This document shows, one piece after another, positions 2,836 to 45,851 of a stretch of 64,000 nt of DNA. Origin of the DNA: Chloropicon primus (taxonomy: Eukaryota). The notes beneath the pieces are model-generated. The model was not told the origin of the DNA. It was given only the letters and a program-made list of their open reading frames with translations, and searched no databases. Both the position numbers and the translations under genes were made by a program. Where the stretch lies: positions 310,001 through 374,000 of the forward strand of contig CP060758.1 in NCBI GenBank assembly GCA_023205875.1, given 5' to 3'. Every line of letters begins with the position of its first letter. Position 1 is the first letter of the stretch.

Positions 2836-3264
2836 ACGATTCCCCTCGTCTCCAAGGGTCGCTTCGCGCCTTTCGCCCCCCTTGTCCAGCATGTAACGTT
2901 ACCTATAAAAAAGTTCAGTATACGTAACGTTACAAACAAAAACTAGGGATTTGGGATGGAGTTTATATAACGGCATGAAGCGAAAGCGAATCGGATAAAT
3001 CGTCACGTGGGGGAACGATGGGATCGAGGAGACAGACCCCTTTGGCGCGCGCGGCAAGACAGACAGAGAGAGACAGAGAGAGAGAGAGAGGGAGGGAGGG
3101 AGGTGTGCGTGATCTTGGGAGTTTTTTTCGAGTGCGTCGAGAGGGAGCGTCTCTTTTTCCTCTTTCGAACGAGACCTCGGTCGAGAGAAACGACCCAGGG
3201 GTGAGGATTTTAGACAGAGGGAGAGGAGCAGAGCGAGCGAGCGAGCGAGACAGAGAGAGAGGGT

Positions 3265-12873: not shown

Positions 12874-13044
12874 ACTTTTTTCACTTCTTTCCCCTCGCGT
12901 GTTCGCGTCCTCCTCCAATCCTCACCGCTGGGTCGTTTCTTTCGCGCGACGGCTCGTTCAAAACAGCAAGAGACGACGCTTCTGCTCGTCCCAATTCCTC
13001 CGTCTCTCCGCTTCCCCGACGCGCGCTCCAGTCCTCGCTTGTTT

Positions 13045-13052
13045 CCCTCTCT

Positions 13053-13090
<38 letters not shown>
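13045..13090. repeat. (CT)n microsatellite
   Basis: Direct read; similar (CT)n, (GA)n and (CA)n tracts occur in many intergenic and intronic regions (e.g. ~21882-21909, ~51410-51440, ~56412-56457). Confidence 0.9.
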
Positions 13091-23535: not shown

Positions 23536-24001
23536 GACGCGCGCGCGCGCGCGAGAGAGAGATCAATCGAAAGCTCGCGGGACAGACTTTCGATCTACGC
23601 AACGCTTCCCTCCGTGGCGTCTTCGCCCCCTCCCCCAAGCGTCTCGTCCTTCTCCTTCCGCCGCGCGATCGATCGCGCGATCGCTGCAGAGCTTTGGATG
23701 ATCCGATTTGCTCCGCGAGTTTCAAACGAAACGGAGAGCAGCTCGCGCGCGATCGCGATCGATCGGAGGGAGGGCGGGCGAGGGCGGGCGAGGGGTGGGG
23801 ACAAGGGCGGGAGGGGTTGGATCGCGGGAAGCTTCGCCTCTTGGTCTTTCGGTAGACCTCTCGGTTGAAGATTTTGACCCAGGGACGGGCACGGAACACG
23901 GGAACGGAGGATCGACCGACAGAGGGGACGGTGGTTGGAGCGCGGGGGTCGGTGGTGGTGTTGCGGGGCAGCCGGCGAGTGGCTCGTGAGGGTGCGGCAG
24001 G

Positions 24002-33280: not shown

Positions 33281-34063
33281 TCACCTCTTTTTCGTGTACA
33301 GGCAAGCCTCGAGGAGTCCTGCCGGCGGATCGATCTCGCAAAAGCCTCCCTGCGTGTCGACCACTGGCACAATCTCCCTGGCGAACGGAACCAAAACGCA
33401 GACCTTGGCCCGCTTCCTCTTGCTGGCTTCCACTTCGGATTCCTTTCCGAGCCTCCTGCTGTACGAGTCGCAGACTTCGATGTCGAGCGTGTCGTGGACT
33501 CCCGTGCCGGAGAAGACGTCAACGACCACACCCAAGTCGACTGGATCCTCCTCCCCCCCTTCCTGCCTGACGCGAGCCCGCAGGCCAACCAAGTCCTGGG
33601 CATAAAACTCCGAGTCCCCGTCGAGCTCGTCCCTCTCGTCCGTCCTCACCAACAGGGTGTGCCCCTTGACCGCCTCCGCCTCGTCCCTGCTGGACACATT
33701 GTCGAGCTTCAGCAGGTACGCGAGCTGACCCCGGTTCGTCACGGTGCGCGCGAACTGTATTTCCATCCGCACCGGGTCCTCACTCTCTTCGAATATGCTC
33801 GCCTTTCGACGCAACCAGCTGTTCTTCCCGGGACGAAACCTGTCCTCGGCCGAGTCCGTCAGGGGCTTCACGCGGACCTCGCCACGCAGGCCGTGGGCAC
33901 CCGTCACGACGCCAACCTTCACCCACTCCACGCCCGCCTCTCCCTCCCCGGCGACCCTGCACCTCGCCGTCCTTCGCGGAGGCCGGGGCCCAAGAGCGCC
34001 GAAGCGCTTGCCCTCGCGCCTCCACCGCTTCTCAGCAGCACGGGGCGAAGCTCTGGCAAGCAT
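33281..34063 (-). CDS. rimM: Ribosome maturation factor RimM, plastid-type
   Basis: VGVVTGAHGLRGEVRV, SRDEAEAVKG, EFYAQDLVGL, LVPFAREIVPVVD, PPAGLLE; transit-like N-terminus. Confidence 0.92.
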   Translation of the reverse strand: MLARASPRAAEKRWRREGKRFGALGPRPPRRTARCRVAGEGEAGVEWVKVGVVTGAHGLRGEVRVKPLTDSAEDRFRPGKNSWLRRKASIFEESEDPVRMEIQFARTVTNRGQLAYLLKLDNVSSRDEAEAVKGHTLLVRTDERDELDGDSEFYAQDLVGLRARVRQEGGEEDPVDLGVVVDVFSGTGVHDTLDIEVCDSYSRRLGKESEVEASKRKRAKVCVLVPFAREIVPVVDTQGGFCEIDPPAGLLEACLYTKKR

Positions 34064-34169
34064 CCTGATGAGCTATTTTGCGCCAACGCCGCGGCGTCTC
34101 TCGAGTTCCCTCTTTTGTTATGGTGTTCAGACATCAGATCAAAACAGCACACAGAAAAGTCACGAAAGG

Positions 34170-34244
34170 ACGGTAGGGAAATCACAGTCAATACTGGAAG
34201 CACAAAGGCAAGTTCTCCTTTCCACTGAAAGAGAGAAACACGGA
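34170..34244. repeat. 75-bp direct repeat, copy 1 (candidate Fanzor element end)
   Basis: ACGGTAGGGAAATCACAGTC...GAGAGAAACACGGA is identical to 37899-37973; flanks differ on both sides. Confidence 0.95.
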
Positions 34245-34429
34245 GAGAAATGGAGACCGGCCCCTACTTACCTGTTAGTTTTCTGCAAAGGTCGTTTCAC
34301 CGAGTTTGTAAGTTTCTCGGCAGGGTAATTCAGCCCTACCACGACCATTCCACCGTACATGAACGAATACTTCCGCCCACTTAGCGCACGGCAGCCCGTA
34401 CTAACAAACGTATGTGCAACCCTGAGGAG
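34170..34429 (-). ncRNA. Candidate Fanzor omegaRNA/fRNA scaffold
   Basis: Directly 3' of the Fanzor stop; nested complementary segments 34273-34279/34400-34406, 34290-34295/34341-34346, 34300-34304/34316-34320, 34319-34325/34334-34340, 34386-34391/34396-34401; ends are inferred. Confidence 0.65.
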
Positions 34430-36670
34430 TTACACACTTTTTGGTTGACGCAAGTGCTTCAGGAGGACGTTGCGTGCCCCGTTCACATCCCGACCGCACT
34501 TGAAGCCACACTTCTGGCACTTGTACACCTCTGCTCCACCCAGGTTGTCCTTGATGTGTCCGCACCTGCCACAGGTCTTGGAGGTGTACTCCTCCGTCAC
34601 GATCGCCAGCTCACTGCCGTGCAAGAGCACCTTGGAAGCCAAGAACGTTCTGAACGCATAGTGCCTCAACGTCAAGAGCGTGCGAGCCGTCTTCTTCCTG
34701 ATCACTCGGCGTCTCCCGTTGTTGTTCTTCTTCACCATGTCTTGGGACTTGAACTCCGGGAGGAGGATTGTGTCGAACCTCCTGCATAGATCGTTGGCTA
34801 CCTTTTTGTGAAGCTCGTTCGTCAGACCTCGAAGTTTCTCCATGCAGGCGTATTGCTGTCTCTTCAAGTCGCGGCGGTCGAGGTAAGGGAGCTTCACCTT
34901 TGGGTCTTTGCGCTCGGAAATGATCTTATCAATCCTCCAGCAGAGGTTGAACAGCCTCGCGAAGCCTCGCTCGCCCTTGGCATACTCCCCGACGCCTTCT
35001 TGCGGCGAGTACGACGTCTGAAAGGTCCTGACTCCCGGATCCAGGGCGACAACCTTCCGCTTGTTCTCAGGCTTCAGGGGTGGCAGGCGATCCCATGGCG
35101 TCGCGATGGGAATGTGCATGTGGAACTGCCCAAGGCGATTTCTTGTGATCTTCACGGCACCCTCGATCTTGCCCCCGGGGATCTCCTCCGTCAAGTACAG
35201 GGGCCCGCCGGCCATCTTCTCCTTGAACACCTCCAGCTTGGTCCACTTGCGTCGTTTCTTGTGCTTCGTGTCATCCTTGTGCCTCGTGTTTGGCCTTTCG
35301 ATCGTCTCCACGTTCTTTAAGTCTCTTGCATTAATTTCAATGGTCCAAGAGCTCGGTTGCTGACGTTGACGATACTTGAGAACGAAGCGGTGCCCCTTCT
35401 TCTCGCCGCGCTCCTTCATCGCTTCCTGCTTCGCGGTGTTCGAATCCCATGCCTTGATGAGACTTCGCACGGCAGCTTGTCTGATGGCACAGGGGGTATC
35501 CTTCAGCCAAGGATGCTTCTGATTCACAAAGGCCCCGCTAACGTAGTCCCGGTCCTTGGCCACTTCGGCGCGAAATCGTCTGCCTCCAATGAGGCTGACG
35601 AGTCTCTTCTCTCTGGCCGCCTCCTGTTTTGTCCTTCGCTTGGGAGAGCATTGGATTTCTTTCAGCTCTTTCTCCAGGCCCTCAAAGACCTCAGGGCCTC
35701 GCGGTTTGGCCGTCACAAATCTGTCCAGCAGGACGTTCCAAACCAGCGGAAAACCCTCCTTCTTGACCGCCTCCAAACACTTGTTGTATGTGAAACGCGC
35801 AGCTCCCATCCAGTTGCAAAGTGTTCTCGCCTGCTCAGGGTCCAAGCGCATCCTAAGCTTCCTCGTCCGTATCACCGTTCGCTCCGACAATAGCTTGGAG
35901 GTCTTCAGCTTCTGCTCCCTCTTCCTTTTGGCGGGCGGCTGCAATGTCTCGACGGATACCACAGAATCTTCTGGAAGGTTCAAGCACGACCTCCATCCCG
36001 TCTTCGGACACTTTACCTCTTCAAGTTCTCTCTTCATCGATGAGAACCAGGTCTTCTTCACGCTGTCGTCCGCCAAGCCACCCGGCTGCTTCCCTGCTTT
36101 CTTCCCCCTCTTGTTCTTCTTCTTCTTACCCTTCTTCTTGTTCTTCTTCTTGCCCTTCTTGCGAGGCTTCTTGCGAGGCTTGCCTGACGAGCTCGAACTC
36201 TCACCCGCAGAGGAAGCCGCCTCCGGCGGCTTCCCCTTCCGCTTCCCCCCCCGCTTCTTGCGAGGCGTGCTCGAACCCTCCTCGAAAGCAGAGGCGGGGT
36301 CGTCCAGCGGCGTCTCCTTCCGCTTCCCCCCCCGCTTCTTGCGAGGCGTGCTCGAACCCTCCTCGAAAGCAGAGGCGGGGTCGTCCAGCGGCGTCTCCTT
36401 CCGCTTCCCCCCCCGCTTCTTGCGAGGCGTGCTCGAACCCTCACCCGCAGAGGCGGGGTCGTCCGCGATAGGAAGCATGCACAACGCGTAGAGCAACGCT
36501 AAACCCTGATTCCAGAACCGACGTAACGGCCGCTCCGTCGTCGGAGACTCCTGCCCCGACTTCGAAGCGCCCTGAGCATGACTCTCGCCAGAGTGCGACC
36601 TCCTTGTGGAACTCGTCGAGCCACTCCCCTGCTTCTCCTTTTTCTTACGGCGCTTCCCTGATCGCGCCAT
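34430..36670 (-). CDS. Fanzor: Fanzor2-type RNA-guided DNA endonuclease (eukaryotic TnpB/IS607-OrfB homolog)
   Basis: RTRKLRMRLDPEQARTLCNWMGAARFTYNKCL (OrfB HTH/WED start), RuvC-I VVALDPGVRTF, ILLPEF, alternative RuvC-II VTEEYTSKTC, zinc finger CGRC...CQKC, RuvC-III RDVNGARNVLL; intronless, 746 aa. Confidence 0.95.
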   Translation of the reverse strand: MARSGKRRKKKEKQGSGSTSSTRRSHSGESHAQGASKSGQESPTTERPLRRFWNQGLALLYALCMLPIADDPASAGEGSSTPRKKRGGKRKETPLDDPASAFEEGSSTPRKKRGGKRKETPLDDPASAFEEGSSTPRKKRGGKRKGKPPEAASSAGESSSSSGKPRKKPRKKGKKKNKKKGKKKKNKRGKKAGKQPGGLADDSVKKTWFSSMKRELEEVKCPKTGWRSCLNLPEDSVVSVETLQPPAKRKREQKLKTSKLLSERTVIRTRKLRMRLDPEQARTLCNWMGAARFTYNKCLEAVKKEGFPLVWNVLLDRFVTAKPRGPEVFEGLEKELKEIQCSPKRRTKQEAAREKRLVSLIGGRRFRAEVAKDRDYVSGAFVNQKHPWLKDTPCAIRQAAVRSLIKAWDSNTAKQEAMKERGEKKGHRFVLKYRQRQQPSSWTIEINARDLKNVETIERPNTRHKDDTKHKKRRKWTKLEVFKEKMAGGPLYLTEEIPGGKIEGAVKITRNRLGQFHMHIPIATPWDRLPPLKPENKRKVVALDPGVRTFQTSYSPQEGVGEYAKGERGFARLFNLCWRIDKIISERKDPKVKLPYLDRRDLKRQQYACMEKLRGLTNELHKKVANDLCRRFDTILLPEFKSQDMVKKNNNGRRRVIRKKTARTLLTLRHYAFRTFLASKVLLHGSELAIVTEEYTSKTCGRCGHIKDNLGGAEVYKCQKCGFKCGRDVNGARNVLLKHLRQPKSV
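36236..36464 (-). repeat. 81-bp in-frame tandem repeat (~3 copies) encoding DDPASAFEEGSSTPRKKRGGKRKETPL
   Basis: GCTTCCCCCCCCGCTTCTTGCGAGGCGTGCTCGAACCCTC starts at 36241, 36322 and 36403. Confidence 0.95.
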
Positions 36671-36676
36671 GACTGC

Positions 36677-36800
36677 TAGGGTTTCACTCGCCGTCCTCGT
36701 CCCTCGTCCCTCGCGACAAACTCAACCGATCGATCGATCGTCTGCCAACTCGAACTGACGCTGCTCTCTCTCTCTCTCGAGGCGCGAAAATGTTTTCAAA
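36677..36800 (-). promoter_or_regulatory. Putative Fanzor promoter with host-type motifs (CHR-like TTTGAA, E2F-like TTTTCGCGCC, GATC repeats, telo-box AAACCCTA)
   Basis: Minus strand reads TTTGAAAACATTTTCGCGCC (36800-36781), CGATCGATCGATCG (~36727-36740) and AAACCCTA (36684-36677) just upstream of the ATG. Confidence 0.4.
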
Positions 36801-37118
36801 TCCCCCCCAAAAGAAGCGAAATCACTTGTAAATTTATTACACTCGTTTCGATACACAGGGCGAGGTTTGTTTTTCAGGGGAGGGGGTCGAACTCTTCGTT
36901 CTGGTGGATTTCTCCCTTCCGCTGAACCATCATAACGGCCGAGCACGAGGGCGAACCAGGAGGAGGGAGAGAGAGAGAAGGGGGACGGGAGAGCGCGGAG
37001 GAGGAAGAGGGAGGCGGAGGACCGGACAGAAGGAAGCGTCGTCTCGTGCTCTTTCGAAAGAGCCCTCGCTCGAAGAGAACGACCCGGTGGTGAGGATCTG
37101 AGGAGCACGGGCGTGAAG

Positions 37119-37860
37119 ATGGCGGTGACAGGGGGAGCGAGCAAGAGGCAGAGGACGGAGGGATGCGCTGGAGGTGCTTCCCGAGTGGGCGTGGTTCCTG
37201 GTCTTGAAGCAGCTGGACGATTACGACCACCTTGCTTTTGGGGTTGACCTGCAGGACGTTCCTCGAGGCGGTGACGAAGGCGACGAGCCCCGAGGAGAAG
37301 AAGAAGGCTCGCCTGAGGACGGACCTGTCGCAAGAGAAGTTGTTCGATCAGATGCCTTCCTTCACTTTGGGTTGGTACCAGCGGATGTTCCAATCGTTCA
37401 AAAGGAAGAAGTCTCGGAGATTTGAAAGAAAGAAGGGAGCACGGTTCAATTTTGTACCTCTGTATGGACACTCCAACTACTTGTACCTCTCCGACTACAC
37501 GTACGACGTCGAGCTGATGTACCTCGCCGCTTTCCAGGGCAGCAAGAAGGTGATGAAGTGGCTGGTGAGCCAAGGGATCCCTTTGGGTATCATTCTTCGC
37601 GGTTTACCTCATGAGGAGCGGTAGCAGTTGAAAGAGCTGCTGAAGGAGGTCACATTGATGTTCTGGAATGGTTGAGGAGCGAGGGGTGCGGGTTTGGTGA
37701 GGAGGCTTGTGCGGGTGCAGCTCGAGGAGGCCACCTTGACGCTCTGCAGTGGCTTCGAAGCCTGGAACCGCCTTGCCGTTGGAGCGGGTGGACTTCTTTT
37801 AGTGCAGCTCAAGGAGGCCACCTTCATATTCTCAAGTGGCTTCGAAGCCTGGATCCCCCA
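37119..37860 (+). pseudogene. F-box-like plus ankyrin-repeat protein pseudogene (AA.GGHL..L.WLR type), frameshifted and 3'-truncated
   Basis: Joining three frame changes gives EVLPEWAWFLVLKQLDDYDHLAFGLTCRTF...YLAAFQGSKKVMKWL...AAEGGHIDVLEWLRSEG...AARGGHLDALQWLRSLEPPCRW...AAQGGHLHILKWLRSLDPP, then homology breaks off. Confidence 0.8.
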
Positions 37861-37898
37861 GAATATCTCTCTCTTCTGCAATATCTTTCTCTTCTACA

Positions 37899-37973
37899 AC
37901 GGTAGGGAAATCACAGTCAATACTGGAAGCACAAAGGCAAGTTCTCCTTTCCACTGAAAGAGAGAAACACGGA
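37899..37973. repeat. 75-bp direct repeat, copy 2
   Basis: Identical to 34170-34244. Confidence 0.95.
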
Positions 37974-38024
37974 TCGAACCAGGATAGTTCCAAAGGCTAC
38001 AGACAAGGTAGACCTTCAAAGGGG

Positions 38025-38262
38025 AACGCTCGTGAGGTGCAGTTCACCGAACGAGATACAGAGGCGCCACAGAGTGAAGTACTACAGACCAAACAAGTAC
38101 TGGCTGAGTACTGAACAAGGGCAGTAACGCTCGTGAGGTGTAGTTCACCGAACGAGATGCAGTAACGCTCGTGAGGTGTGGTTCACCGAACGAGACGCAG
38201 AGGTGCAGTAGTGCGAAGTACTACAGACCAGCAAGTATTGGCTGAGTACTGAACAAGTGCAG
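38025..38262. repeat. Tandem hairpin-containing repeat (two ~100-bp units and one 38-bp partial)
   Basis: AACGCTCGTGAGGTGYRGTTCACCGAACGAGA at 38025, 38126 and 38164; the first and third copies are followed by a shared GAAGTACTACAGACCA...TGGCTGAGTACTGAACAAG. Confidence 0.9.
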
Positions 38263-38387
38263 CAAGTATGCAAACAATAAGATTGCAGATAAACAACTCG
38301 ACGATCAACAACGTCGACAGGATTCTCCTTCGAATGATCCTCTTCTCCAGCTCCCTCCTCACTATGTCTTCCCAAAAAAACATGCGG

Positions 38388-38428
38388 GTTGTAGTTGTAG
38401 TTGTAGTTGTAGTTGTAGTTGTGGTTGT
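38388..38428. repeat. (GTTGTA)n hexanucleotide microsatellite
   Basis: Direct read. Confidence 0.9.
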
Positions 38429-39482
38429 CCTTTGGGTGTGACCAAACTGGTATACACTGGAATCCCACCAACAGGGGAAAACCTCCAACATCTGTTTCTG
38501 TCTGTCATACACCCCTTACCCGCTCTGTACACTGTTCGGACGATCTTGGATTTCCGCCGCCCTCTGGATCCAGGATCATATTTCCTTAATCAAGTCCAAG
38601 GTTCACCATTGTAATGGCATTTCGTGGTATGCTACGTGAGACGTTGCACGAAAGTTTCCACCCTTGGAACCCCCAAGACGTTCTCTCTGTTTGATGTTAC
38701 CCTCACTGTTCTGTTTTTCGTTATCGTCTGAGACAGAATCCTTCACGGAAGGGCTCGTCCAGTAGTCCGGTGGTTTTGCTGGAGGCGAGGGGCTCTGCTC
38801 GAGGGAATATACGCCCAACGCGAGGCTTCCAGCTTGACACAACTCACCTTCACCTTCACCTTCATCGCAGGCTCCTGGGATCCCATCACCTGTCAAGCAC
38901 CAAGACGAGGGGCAGACCAAAGCATAGACCCAGAGGCTTGGCTTGACTGGCTCGGCTCTTGTGTGCCGGGTGTGCCGGGTGTGGCGTGTGCTTGTTTTTG
39001 CGGTCACTAGTTTTGGTTCGAGTCTGCTCAGCTTGCCTTGGTGGGCTGGAGGCAGAGACAGAGCAGAGGCAGGAAGAGAGAGGGCAGAGGTTCTGCTTGG
39101 CTTGGCTTGGCTGGTTTTGGAGTTAAATTCTTGCTTGCTGTGGACTAAAGCGGCGGCTGGCCTTTCGGTTTTGTCGACTCTTGTGGAGGAGATCGCTTTG
39201 ATAATACTCTTACTGGGATGAAAGTAGCAAGACCTGTGGACTAGCCAAGGAAACGTGTTGTTCTTTAAGGGTGGGCAGCCAAAGGAGACGGATTCTGCCT
39301 GCTAAGCATGCACTAGAAATCATTGTCCATCAAAGCTTGAGTCGACAAACTTAGCTTGCCTGTGTTGTGCTGAGATAGTAGGCTAGGCGTGGCCTCTCCA
39401 AGTGAAGTTGAAGAAGGCGTGTGTGTGCGTGTGCGTGTGCGTGTGTGTATAAGTGTGAAATCCGCTAGACGACTGCTGCAGT

Positions 39483-40658
39483 ATGGTGTTCAAAAGGAAA
39501 ACGTCCAAGCCGAAGACTGACGTCGAGATGGCTTCAGCGAACAACGGAGACAGGCAAGATGTGCGAAAGAGCTTGGATCTGGAGTCCCAGGACTCGGTGC
39601 ACAGGAGTTTAGGAAGCCAGAGCAGCCTGACCCCCTCGGACGCCCAGCTCCAGATCTTCGACGAGCTCGACCAGATCGAGCAGAAAGGCATCAAGGCGGC
39701 GCACCAGCACAGGAGGAGTAGCAACAAGAGCGTGTCCATCATCGAGAAGATGCTGAACAGGGACGATGACCAGAAAGGTATTAGGACGACTCAGAACGTG
39801 TTCAAGCAAGCCATCGATCCGAGGAACACGTCAAGGTTGCGCTGGGATTTTGTCATCGTGCTGGCAGTTCTTTACAACTGCCTCGTCATCCCCCTGCGTA
39901 TTGGTTTTGGTGATGACAAGTTCGGCCCCTTCTCCGCCATCGACTTGCTCATCGATCTGATGTTCATGTCGGACATCTTTGTAAACTTTGTCACGGGGTA
40001 CTTCAGGACCGTCAAGGAGACGGGCGAGCAGCAGCTTGTTTTGAGCCAGCCCGCGGCTGCGTATCACTACGCCAGGACCTGGTTCTTCTTCGACACGATA
40101 GCGTCGCTGCCGGTGGACTTCATGCTTCTTCTGCAAGTGTCCCCCAAGGTTCTCCTGTATATGAGGTTCCCAAGAATGCTGCGTTTGCTGAGGCTTCCAA
40201 GGCTGTTCAGGTACATGAAGAGGTGGGAGGAGTACATCGGCTTGAAGCCTCAAGTGCTTCGTCTGTGCAAGACAATCTTCTTGCTGTTCGTTTTCGCCCA
40301 CTTCTCGGCGTGCATTCAGTTCTTCGCTGCGCAGTTGCAAGACTTCCCCGCAGACTGTTGGGTGGCCAAAGCCAAGTTGGTGCAGAAGCCAAAGATGGAG
40401 CAGTACGCGTACTCGCTGTTCACGGCTCTTTCCCATATGCTTTGTATTGGTTACGGACCAACGGCGGGACCAACGAACCTCACGGAAGTGTGGCTGATCA
40501 CCATCTCCATGTGTATCGGTGCCTCGTTCTACATTATCCTGGTCGGTATGATCTCTTCGACGCTCGTGGATGCGGATCAGAACAGGTCAAGGGGAAGAGA
40601 AGGGGTCAGGGCCATGTCTGTGTCATCGCGCATGAGCTTTTCTGGAGATATAGTGTAA
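39483..40658 (+). CDS. HCN-like 6-TM voltage-gated cation channel lacking C-linker/CNBD, paralog 1
   Basis: IDPRNTSRLRWD (S1), YARTWFFFDTIASLPVD (S3), RMLRLLRLPRLFRY (S4), ALSHMLCIGYG pore; stop ~30 aa after S6. Confidence 0.85.
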   Translation: MVFKRKTSKPKTDVEMASANNGDRQDVRKSLDLESQDSVHRSLGSQSSLTPSDAQLQIFDELDQIEQKGIKAAHQHRRSSNKSVSIIEKMLNRDDDQKGIRTTQNVFKQAIDPRNTSRLRWDFVIVLAVLYNCLVIPLRIGFGDDKFGPFSAIDLLIDLMFMSDIFVNFVTGYFRTVKETGEQQLVLSQPAAAYHYARTWFFFDTIASLPVDFMLLLQVSPKVLLYMRFPRMLRLLRLPRLFRYMKRWEEYIGLKPQVLRLCKTIFLLFVFAHFSACIQFFAAQLQDFPADCWVAKAKLVQKPKMEQYAYSLFTALSHMLCIGYGPTAGPTNLTEVWLITISMCIGASFYIILVGMISSTLVDADQNRSRGREGVRAMSVSSRMSFSGDIV

Positions 40659-43079: not shown

Positions 43080-44648
43080 CCTTCCCTTCTGCAACACAAT
43101 CACTCGAATCGAATCGAATCGAACCAAACCAAATCAAATCAAATCAAACACTCGGTTTGATGTTGAAAAGAGTTCTCCCTCCCCAGAGCGAGAGTCAAAA
43201 CTGTCGCAGGAGGAGGAAGAGACGATCCCGATCCTCTCGACGCTCTCGTCGCTGCTCCTCGCCGTACCCCTTCCTTCCTTCCTTCCTTCCACGAGCCAAG
43301 TGACTTCTCTGTCGTATGTCGTCGTATGATCACCTCACCGCTTTCGTGTCCCCAAATCCTCCCCAGAGCGCTGTGCACCTGAAGCGCGAGCTCAAACGAA
43401 AGGTGAGGAGACGACGCTTCTGTATCTCCTCCTCTCCCCCCTTTTCCGAAACCCCTCCGCCGCGCGCCACGACCCTCCTCTTCCTCCTCTTCCTCCTTTG
43501 GCCTCTCGATCGATCAGGCTATGATCTCTCTCTGCTCTCGCTTCCTCCCGTCGCAGGAAAGGGAAAGTTTGGCCAACTTTTCTGGAGAGGAGGAATCCTG
43601 GCGCGCGCGTTGCAACGAGGAGGAGGGAGGGAGGAGATGCCTTCTTCTTCCTCAAGGAAACGGAAACGCTCTCTGAACGCTTGGTTTTTTGACCTTTTGG
43701 GATAATTGAGTCCAAGAGAACGTGCCCCGAAAAGATTCCTGCCAAGGCCACGAACGAGATCGTCGACGCGATCTCTCCATTGACACTGAAGGTCTTGGGA
43801 GAGATGACGGTTGACAAAGAGGGGGACCCTATCCATCATACAAGTTGTGAGGCACAACCTCTTGATCCTTCATCAAAGATACGTTCGTACGAGTAGTCTA
43901 CTCCTTGGTCTTGTTGGAACGATGCAAGCCGAAAGGTTCGGGACCTTTTTGTCTATCTTGTCGATCTGTCACTTGCATGGATCGCCTGTCTTTGTGTTGT
44001 GTCGTGTGTTGGTTGGTCTTATTCCAGCGCAAAAAAAGGAATCTATCTCTCTCTCTACTTTCCATCTCTTGGTTGCAATTACAGCAATTCACACCCTGTG
44101 GTCCTCTCCCTCTCTCTCCCTCTCTCTCCCTCTCCCTCTCCTCTCTTCCCTCTGGAAAAAAAATAAGGACGAAGAAAGAACGAAGAAAGTCTGAGGTCTG
44201 ACCTTCAAGCTTGAAGCTTCGAGCACCGAAGAAAAAAAAATAAACCAGAGGCTACCCTGGGCAAAGTGCAGCCGAGAGAGAGAGAGACCGAGGGACCAAC
44301 AAGCCAAGACAAGGGCTTTGGGCTTACCCACACAACCACTTTACCGAGGACCGAGGCCGAGATACGACCGTGTGCACGGCAACCTTGACCCTGGCCTGAC
44401 CTTGGCACCAGACGCAACGCTTCGAAGGTCAAGGCATTCGCTTCCGTGCTTGTTCGTGGAAAACAATCTTTTCTTGTGTTTGTTTTTTGTGTTGTGGAGG
44501 TTGAGGTGAACGAGGTCAAAGCATTGGAGAGGTCTGTGCAAAGTAACCTGGTGGGGATGTGCGGGTCCATCCTTTAGGCTAGGACTGTCTTAGGCTAGGA
44601 CATTCTTTGCCGTATTCGTAAGCACACAAAGTTTGTTGAACAGCATTT

Positions 44649-45851
44649 ATGGACAGAAACGGAAACAACAATATGAGTAACAAGGTAGCACCTGGCATTG
44701 ACGACAGTCCGCCCCCCATGCTAGACAACTTGGTGGACAACACGCCGAGTCTCGGGGAAGGGACGGGATATTCCATTGAGGATGAGCTTCAGAACAACAG
44801 CAACATGTTTCGGGACGAGGCAAAGATTGAGGCGGAGGAGCAGGACGCGGACAGAAGAGAAAGCCGAACGAGTCTGATAGCGAGGATATTGGGGAAGGAG
44901 GAGCCCAAGATACGCATGGTGGGTCCGCTCAGAACGAAATCGGTGATAAAGAGGTACACGACGGAAGTTTGGGACCCCAGAAGCACAGGAAGACTTCGGT
45001 GGGATGCCGTTGTTGTTGTCTGTGTCTTGTACAACTGCCTTGTCCTGCCGTTTCGAATTGGGTTTGGTGATGACGAGTTCGGTCCACTCTCTGTATTAGA
45101 ACTGATGGTGGACGTGATGTTTATCACAGACATTTTTGTGAACTTTAGGACAGGGTACTTTACGTTTGACAGGGAAGAAGACGAGTACATACTGGTTCTG
45201 AAGCAGCCTCAGGCGGCGTATCACTACGCGAGGACGTGGTTCTTCTTCGACCTCGTGTCCTCGCTTCCGGTGGACCTGCTGCTGCTATTCAACATGAACA
45301 GCAAGACTCTTCTTTACCTTCGCTTTCCCAGGATGCTTAGGCTGCTCAGACTTCCAAGACTGTTTAGGTACCTGAATAGGTGGGAGCAACAGATTGGTAT
45401 TTCGAGGCAGGCGTTCCGTATGGCAAAGACGCTTTTCCTGCTGTTCGAATTTGCACACTTCTCGGCGTGCATGCAGTTCTTCTCCGCCAAGTTCATGGAC
45501 TTCCCAGACACGAGTTGGGTCGTGAAGGCAAACATTGACGACGATACAAAGCCGGAGCAGTACGCGTACTCCTTGTTCACCTCGTTGTCGCATATGCTTT
45601 GTATTGGATATGGCCCCACGGGTGGCCCGGAGAACGTCACTGAGGTGTGCCTGATCATGGCGTCGATGTGTATAGGAGCATCGTTCTACATTATCCTGGT
45701 CGGTATGATCTCATCGAACCTCGTAGAAAAGGATACTGGTCTTGCGAAGAGGAAGGACCACCCTGCGTTATTGGAGCTTCAAAAGAAACAGAGGGCTTCT
45801 CTGCTCATCAGGGAAAAGAGCATGTTTGCGTCCCCACGCATCAATCGCTAG
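44649..45851 (+). CDS. HCN-like 6-TM voltage-gated cation channel lacking C-linker/CNBD, paralog 2
   Basis: Close paralog of 39483-40658; RMLRLLRLPRLFRY, SLSHMLCIGYG; short C-tail. Confidence 0.85.
   Translation: MDRNGNNNMSNKVAPGIDDSPPPMLDNLVDNTPSLGEGTGYSIEDELQNNSNMFRDEAKIEAEEQDADRRESRTSLIARILGKEEPKIRMVGPLRTKSVIKRYTTEVWDPRSTGRLRWDAVVVVCVLYNCLVLPFRIGFGDDEFGPLSVLELMVDVMFITDIFVNFRTGYFTFDREEDEYILVLKQPQAAYHYARTWFFFDLVSSLPVDLLLLFNMNSKTLLYLRFPRMLRLLRLPRLFRYLNRWEQQIGISRQAFRMAKTLFLLFEFAHFSACMQFFSAKFMDFPDTSWVVKANIDDDTKPEQYAYSLFTSLSHMLCIGYGPTGGPENVTEVCLIMASMCIGASFYIILVGMISSNLVEKDTGLAKRKDHPALLELQKKQRASLLIREKSMFASPRINR

Follow-up and report, generated by a model that had tools for sequence, protein, structure and literature searches.

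Downstream of a Fanzor2 gene in Chloropicon primus, within a 64,000-nt stretch of DNA (the window), we find that the minus-strand segment 34437–34272 shares a co-varying pseudoknot pattern with relatives. We take this segment as the likely scaffold of the upstream Fanzor2's omegaRNA (probability of about 0.85), with its 3′ end at G34272 and a guide predicted to read GUAAGUAGGGGCCGGUCUCC. Judged by its testable features, the tail is likely an expected part of the known TnpB/Fanzor2 family, its function being predicted. An omegaRNA reading of the tail had been proposed from this stretch alone; covariation among relatives now lends it support at the level of sequence. The C. primus Fanzor2* is hereby given a testable scaffold and guide register; it belongs to one of two lineages that have been cited as intermediates on the way from IS607 Fanzor2 to Fanzor1.

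The Fanzor2 gene and the folding of its 3′ tail

The Fanzor2 gene occupies 34430–36670 on the minus strand and encodes 746 amino acids, with no in-frame stop and a Lys/Arg-rich N-terminus. The protein matches PF07282 (E = 9e-18) and PF12323, the TnpB-like TNB and HTH domains, respectively. Its RuvC-I DPG motif is intact (ALDPG at 542, catalytic D544), as are the CxxC-CxxC zinc finger (C700, CQKCG at 718) and the RuvC-III aspartate (D728); the RuvC-II glutamate is the shifted E694, six residues before the zinc finger. The DPG motif, the shifted glutamate, the CxxC pairs and the third aspartate are Fanzor fingerprints according to the text of Yoon et al. (PMC10711439). Residues 250–746 are 95% identical to C. 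primus proteins annotated 'putative IS605 transposase', records which belong to a protein cluster of 46 members. Matching proteins include P0001 (95%) and P0002, the latter listed in the curated Fanzor set of Yoon et al. 2023 (PMC10711439). Among prokaryotic genomes, the best three matches are cyanobacterial, at 42–44% identity, and the nearest prokaryotic kin, as judged by similarity, are pro-Fanzor-type TnpBs. At the N-terminus, 36179–36464 consists of three 78–81-bp tandem units, apparently fewer in other proteins of the family.

There is only one Fanzor copy in the window. No IS607 TnpA (serine recombinase) is present within these 64 kb (four TnpA-like queries, best E = 0.076), and on that extent of sequence the element does not class as an IS607 member; a resolvase does lie beside the nuclease in relatives L011, L012, L017 and L030. 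Contigs from sequencing runs also cover the locus. Three of these runs (X4, X5 and X6), each from a different study, are guessed to be RNA runs, and their contigs carry no strand. Such contigs show variants at 34332, 35258 (X4, X5, X6) and 35618 (two runs), none of them among the variants listed for the DNA run; they look as though expression came mainly from one or a few copies, and are not evidence of editing.

The original prediction described 34170–34429 as highly base-paired. All the motifs it named are present on the minus strand, but their strength is unequal, and the excess folding lies within 34272–34437 rather than across all 260 nt. Against dinucleotide shuffles, the larger interval 34140–34480, in which excess folding had been expected, gives z = -1.86, with 3 of 100 shuffles as good. 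Most of this comes from upstream: 34272–34409 gives z = -2.47 (4/200 as good), 34170–34271 gives z = -0.88 (31/200), and the terminal 75 bp (34170–34244) fold no better than their shuffles (z = -0.14, 86/200). The excess folding is therefore confined to the part before 34272.

Individual helices fare accordingly differently. The 134-nt domain closed by UGUUAGU (34406–34400) and ACUAACA (34279–34273) forms with a probability of 0.85–0.93 when 34272–34409 is folded alone, but of 0.00–0.01 when upstream sequence is included, because the folding program, which is blind to pseudoknots, picks another partner in longer folds. The hairpin GGUAGGG/CCCUGCC (34319–34340) holds at 0.92–1.0, and CAGU/ACUG within the terminal 75 bp at 0.71–0.94. 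CCGUGC pairs with the second GUACGG (0.97) and not with the first (0.00–0.03), so that what had been offered as the alternative partner is the one retained. GGUCGU/ACGACC is marginal (0.43–0.48 within the domain, 0.01–0.17 in longer folds). CCGAG/CUCGG is weak (0.06–0.26), its bases overlapping CCCUGCC, and the proposed hairpin UGGAAAGG...CUUCCA is essentially absent from the computed ensemble (0.00–0.01).

Two elements had been overlooked. One is a short stem that makes a pseudoknot of the closing helix, described below; the other is an 11-bp hairpin over the stop codon (34412–34437), whose 7-bp core has a probability of 1.0. Between them and the GGUAGGG hairpin lies a long hairpin (34350–34394), in which the window copy has five extra bases at 34380–34384. 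These bases are absent in most contigs (3573 of 3703 in depth for X1; all depth for X4, X5 and X6). Without them the hairpin is an uninterrupted 18-bp stem, and the five-base-shorter allele folds better (z = -4.3 versus -2.8; 1 of 50 random windows reaches -2.4). The inner long hairpins vary in number and length among relatives, and are likely to be partly dispensable. An Rfam search returned six matches (E = 0.88–7.4), none of them in the tail, and exact patterns drawn from the tail and from both the 75-bp and the downstream repeat had no match in the viral contigs or prokaryote genomes searched.

A co-varying pseudoknot, and the predicted right end and guide

The predicted scaffold, which we call module A, spans 34272–34437 on the minus strand; its 5′ limit is taken from the first hairpin and may reach further into the gene. 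Following that hairpin, a nexus-type stem CGU/ACG (34397–34410) closes the 8-nt loop UUGUUAGU (34407–34400). The last six loop bases, GUUAGU (34405–34400), form the 5′ strand of the pseudoknot and pair with ACUAAC (34279–34274). Together with the AG that follows, ACUAAC makes up the 3′ segment 34272–34279, the predicted right end of the transposon. As in omegaRNAs, then, the loop of the first stem-loop is complementary to the last bases of the scaffold.

Relatives were collected from scans that gave 7 viral and 80 metagenome loci, and tails could be read in 84 of the 87 (L013, L026 and L033 end at the contig end); 79 prokaryote loci were left out of the tail analysis. Five relatives (L008, L009, L011, L012 and L084), whose proteins are 32–56% identical in the best segment, share both motifs, one about 20 nt past the stop codon and the complementary one just before a terminal G. 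In all six tails (window plus five), a 3–5-bp stem carries a loop of 8 nt, the last six bases of which pair with positions -7 to -2 relative to the end. The corresponding end-anchored alignment, A4, has 58 of 60 cells paired, with 7 of 10 pairs changed on both sides; neither value is reached in any of 500 shuffles, and slid registers pair at 20–48%. The five relatives were picked by eye and the A4 structure was derived from the same sequences, which favors it. Left out of A4 were L010 (53%) and L014 (48%), close relatives whose tails lack the terminal motif, and L001 and L067, which have the 5′ half only. L014 has short tandem repeats after its stop codon.

Comparisons less dependent on this choice point the same way. 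When the 5′ partner is re-optimized for every combination of 5′ and 3′ motifs, loci pair better with their own partner than across loci (5.55 versus 4.46; permutation p = 1e-5, 11 loci), and this holds when ends are set from sister-copy divergence alone (5.19 versus 4.35; p = 5e-4, 8 loci). The closing stem behaves likewise, at 4.08 versus 2.91 for 6 loci (133 of 5000 nulls) and 3.82 versus 2.90 for 14 loci (48 of 5000). Taken locus by locus, helix length is not significant (p = 0.06 for the window, 0.025–0.97 for other loci). A covariance model built from the five relatives, with the window excluded, missed module A, its 15 hits all having E ≥ 1.6, and made one partial hit among 27 other loci; this is a weak model, and only half as long as the window tail. 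End-anchored alignments (A4–A6) were used throughout, whole-tail alignments with loose ends having been dropped as out of register. Also set aside was a strict descriptor with module A as its only match in 128 kb; it was written after module A had been seen, and is circular.

Where the scaffold ends is indicated by the relatives and by contigs. Sister loci diverge right after ...AAACTAAGCG, ...TAGCAG, ...GAAGCG or ...ATCGG, and the window ends in the same register, at ...AAACTAACAG, G34272. An earlier end-motif matrix that included by-eye ends was replaced by one built from sister-defined ends only. Over 325 positions the latter ranks 34272 second, 34271 48th and 34170 92nd; it gives 34261 a higher score than 34272, and the end assigned to L008 by eye falls outside its top three. 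In contigs of X4, X5 and X6 alike, the gene continues into the tail. One contig of run X6 follows the window from 35257 to 34271 and then carries on with 46 letters unrelated to it. In X4 and X5, which belong to two other studies, contigs end at precisely 34272, a weak hint. Annotated copy P0135 has a Fanzor C-terminus joined mid-codon to a SET-domain gene that is whole in P0136, a fusion that would fit a different flank after the terminal AG. Differing flanks behind family copies are thus seen directly once (X6) and deduced once (P0135). The right end at 34272 in this genome is accordingly a prediction from contigs and from the register of the relatives. The scaffold lies 3′ of the gene and ends at the element's predicted right end, an arrangement that is that of an omegaRNA and that draws here on contigs, not on aligned genomic copies.

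Since G34272 is the last shared base, the guide should start at G34271. Guide A is then predicted to be GUAAGUAGGGGCCGGUCUCC (34252–34271, minus strand), which has no second match in the window. Only 3 of 31 relatives have G directly past their end; the best choice for guide base 1 is accordingly G34271, with an uncertainty of one base. Of the two guides offered originally, the one following a scaffold that ends in ...ACUAACAG was right to within one base, placing the start at U34270. The other required one long scaffold reaching to 34170, a position low in the end matrix and preceded by 75 bp that fold like shuffles, and it is not supported in that form.

By analogy with TnpB and Fanzor2 biochemistry, the omegaRNA would arise from the 3′ portion of the Fanzor transcript and may then be trimmed, as the text on CboTnpB describes for that system (10.1101/2023.11.20.567912). 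The protein would hold the scaffold via the pseudoknot, and the flank-derived guide would direct cleavage of the flank in a copy free of the element, beside a short motif (TAM). Repair from the filled allele or homologue could restore the element in this mostly diploid alga.

Mosaic surroundings and competing readings of the tail

The Fanzor gene sits in a 4.4-kb mosaic segment (34090–38490), located between a RimM-like gene and the next locus, which also holds an ankyrin-gene fragment and repeats. In DNA run X1, a contig joins 34089 to 38491 with 215 other letters between otherwise identical flanks; the whole 4.4-kb segment is therefore polymorphic. Very high summed contig depth is seen at the segment's two ends (34090–34173 and ~38430–38490), which, with a join of 34173 to 38287 in another X1 contig, suggests a shorter outer repeat element. 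Searches for inverted repeats or target duplications around 34090 and 38490 gave chance-level matches only.

A left end of the Fanzor element is harder to place. Between 36670 and 39500 there is only one 7-of-8 inverted match to the right end, at 38467–38474 (minus strand), with no target-site duplication beside it. It is possibly a degenerate left terminal repeat, one such match in ~2.8 kb set against a chance expectation of ~1. For this copy, three five-base repeats occur among the end pairs tested for a 5-nt target-site duplication (~2.3 expected), and none of them lies at 34272. The resemblance of 15 nt at 38474 to L008 was rejected as chance, as it sits within a peptidase gene.

Several other features of the surroundings were noted. 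The 204 bp at 36687–36890, upstream of the Fanzor start, perfectly match the middle of a 17-kb single-depth contig that has other sequence on both sides, as if the piece had been captured from elsewhere; at its edge is what we take to be a AAACCCTA-like box. A dispersed repeat at 36960–37109 has copies at 12906–13058, 3142–3208, 43345–43497 and 23827–23871. A broken ankyrin-repeat gene fragment of a multi-copy family lies at 37129–37905 (plus strand), and the gene models of annotated Fanzor copies P0004 and P0146 each fuse the Fanzor to similar ankyrin sequence. Nested 37–103-bp direct repeats and an (ACTACA)n run occupy 38025–38265 and 38388–38429. Outside the segment, 39869–40570 and 45025–45727 form a 700-bp paralogous pair, 71% identical. 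Finally, an exact 75-bp direct repeat has copies at 34170–34244 and 37899–37973.

The first copy of this repeat supplies the 3′ three quarters of a candidate second scaffold, module B (34171–34272, minus strand). It is possible, though we consider it clearly the lesser chance, that module B is a second omegaRNA-bearing right end, and that the Fanzor element is inserted in its first stem. Such a tandem arrangement would add to the module A reading, giving one read-through RNA with two scaffolds and two guides. Module B has a stem GGU/GCC that uses G34272, an 8-nt loop AAGUAGGG and a CG end, and GUAGGG (34267–34262) is complementary to CCCUAC (34178–34173) at positions -7 to -2. Nine of the 10 family pairs form in it, G:C(-2) and U:A(-3) among them; module A has the same two. 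The window-free model finds module B (34275–34171) as its best match in the 451 nt of 34050–34500 (8.2 bits, E = 0.055); this comparison is post hoc, and over the whole window the same match has E = 7.8 and ranks 12th of 15. A strict descriptor marks 13 ends in 127.5 kb, with modules A and B among them, but when relaxed it also finds matches in the flanking sequence of 4 of 26 other loci. If the two anchors are fixed, so that the module starts where A ends and stops at the repeat boundary, 35–231 of 127,660 positions qualify (0.03–0.2%).

Several observations around module B, whose end is drawn from the repeat boundary, also favor it. The sequence shared by the 75-bp copies stops one base past the terminal G of module B, and in 16 of the 31 relatives the end is followed by U. 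The X1 join of 34173 to 38287 implies that CCG precedes the same downstream sequence at another locus. One X4 contig spans 34253, with at least 49 letters to either side; X1 contigs have no cover at 34253, a gap that was not used as evidence. Against these stand the fold and the details of the pairing. The interior folds like shuffles (z = 0.17; whole unit, z = -0.88), a U-A pair kept unchanged throughout the six module-A tails is reversed, and UU rather than AA precedes the strand. Furthermore, the second 75-bp copy lacks the 5′ stem-loop of module B, and the same bases read well as intron plus exon. A perfect back-to-back match also occurs at L009:2438–2547, one base past the end of that locus and with an 8-bp complement, inside an open frame with no Pfam match; it is probably chance. 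The boundary at 34170, proposed originally as the scaffold end, may yet be meaningful, since a separate pseudoknot-like module has its end at G34171.

Should module B be real, its candidate guide would start UCCUUUCGUGAC (34151–34170, minus strand), in sequence with ~100-fold the summed contig depth of the flank (12854 at 34154 versus 136), a ratio that is not copy number. The fuller version of this idea is a two-unit guide array, and it is more doubtful still. In this version the Fanzor element interrupts the first stem of a right end that bears an omegaRNA and belongs to a second, unrelated element; guide A targets uninterrupted copies of that second element, and guide B targets an abundant genomic repeat. 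Were it true, one nuclease would home both into the guide RNA of another transposon and into a repeat family, which could explain the mosaic 4.4-kb insertion and the duplicated 75 bp.

The intron-like reading of the same bases gives rise to another alternative, which we regard as improbable. Right end and flank together resemble a strong splice donor (CAG|GUAAGU), followed by a pyrimidine tract and UUUCAG, so that removal of 47 nt (34225–34271, minus strand), or splicing to a host exon, could switch the guide to one starting at 34224. The donor CAGGTAAGT occurs once in 128 kb (both strands), the 47-nt stretch is one of 11 candidates that pass a loose intron filter, the X4 and X5 contigs stop exactly at the donor position, and published text describes competition between splicing and omegaRNA at the right end of IStrons in bacteria (10.1101/2023.11.20.567912). 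However, no joint falls in the tail region among the 15 joints listed out of 37, an X4 contig crosses the 47-nt stretch unspliced, and the contig stops can be explained by different genomic flanks without splicing. The stretch is also the shortest of the 11 candidates, C. primus introns averaging ~152 bp in the available accounts (PMC6731263, PMC12301720). The exon-like frame after 34224 matches no protein (two candidates, neither at E ≤ 10) and has no Pfam match.

We consider it very improbable that one long scaffold ends at 34170, with the helix at 34272 merely closing an inner domain. The 75-bp copies do diverge after 34170, and the whole 341 nt show some excess folding at z = -1.86; but relatives end in register with 34272, the module-A loop pairs at only 4 of 6 positions with the bases before 34170, the X6 contig diverges at 34271, and the terminal 75 bp fold like shuffles. 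Equally remote is an ordinary 3′ UTR or terminal repeat with chance pairing, for which the modest z-scores (-1.9 to -2.5), the lack of a meaningful Rfam match and the failure of the window-free model to find the tail can be cited, but which is at odds with compensatory changes in both helices among relatives 32–56% identical in protein, and with a position and geometry that match the solved Fanzor2 and TnpB RNAs as described (PMC11832414; 10.1101/2023.11.20.567912; PMC10711439).

Comparison with known Fanzor and TnpB systems

The C. primus family has been described as Fanzor2*, non-autonomous elements (Yoon et al. 2023, PMC10711439; bioRxiv 10.1101/2023.08.09.552727) with degenerate terminal inverted repeats and variable 5-nt target duplications (PMC10711439). 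C. primus has 25 such genes and a mostly diploid genome (PMC6731263, PMC12301720). The term IS605 does not occur in 12 of the 20 supplement files of PMC6731263, and 'Chloropicon' is absent from PMC10530073. The window element belongs to the same multi-copy protein family and, like the published elements, has no IS607 transposase nearby, as far as the window extends (PMC10711439). It differs in that the window copy shows no duplication and lies inside a 4.4-kb mosaic, and in that the published duplication is placed inside the scaffold, whereas the knot predicted here closes before the duplication (PMC10711439). No RNA boundary or small-RNA mapping for C. primus Fanzor2* appears in the literature text available, although published figures may show ends or a fold. 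The covariation suggests that the knot was retained when the element left IS607, and that it closes ahead of the target duplication, a placement relevant to the way guides accommodate 5-nt duplications that vary. The family, intact and multi-copy, shows polymorphism between samples, and the genome is small and mostly diploid; Fanzor homing could therefore be tested in a eukaryote.

With respect to module B, the nearest precedent is provided by the Fanzor ghost loci (Saito et al. 2023, PMC10432273), stand-alone right ends described as having a working scaffold and no nuclease. Ghosts resemble the scaffold of their partner and lie apart from it (PMC10432273), whereas module B abuts module A, and its only clear sequence likeness to it is a short GUAGGG/CCCU motif. 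Our literature search, which saw its sources in part, found no published tandem Fanzor guide array; such an array would be new, if module B is real.

Module A itself is best compared with RNAs of solved or dissected structure. In the omegaRNA of ApmFz2, as in module A, a 5′ segment pairs with the last scaffold bases beside the guide, and there are long inner stems (PMC11832414). The ApmFz2 scaffold covers 206 positions (-205 to 0), compared with ~165 nt for module A, and its knot lies at -4 to 0 rather than -7 to -2 (PMC11832414). The former knot has been solved and is active, whereas that of module A is predicted (PMC11832414). The nexus pseudoknot has been described for TnpB RNAs (10.1101/2023.11.20.567912) and is required in ISXfa1 (PMC10711439). 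Module A has in common with the omegaRNAs of ISXfa1 and the CboIStron a nexus stem-loop that pairs with the 3′ end of the scaffold (PMC10711439; 10.1101/2023.11.20.567912). Those elements are bacterial and lie beside a serine transposase, unlike the window element (PMC10711439; 10.1101/2023.11.20.567912). The IStron intron is a self-splicing group I intron (10.1101/2023.11.20.567912), whereas the signal in the window resembles a donor of the spliceosomal type. At their very ends the scaffolds remain close, with GAACGG in ISXfa1 (PMC10711439), AACGG in the closest relatives (L008 and L009) and AACAG in the window.
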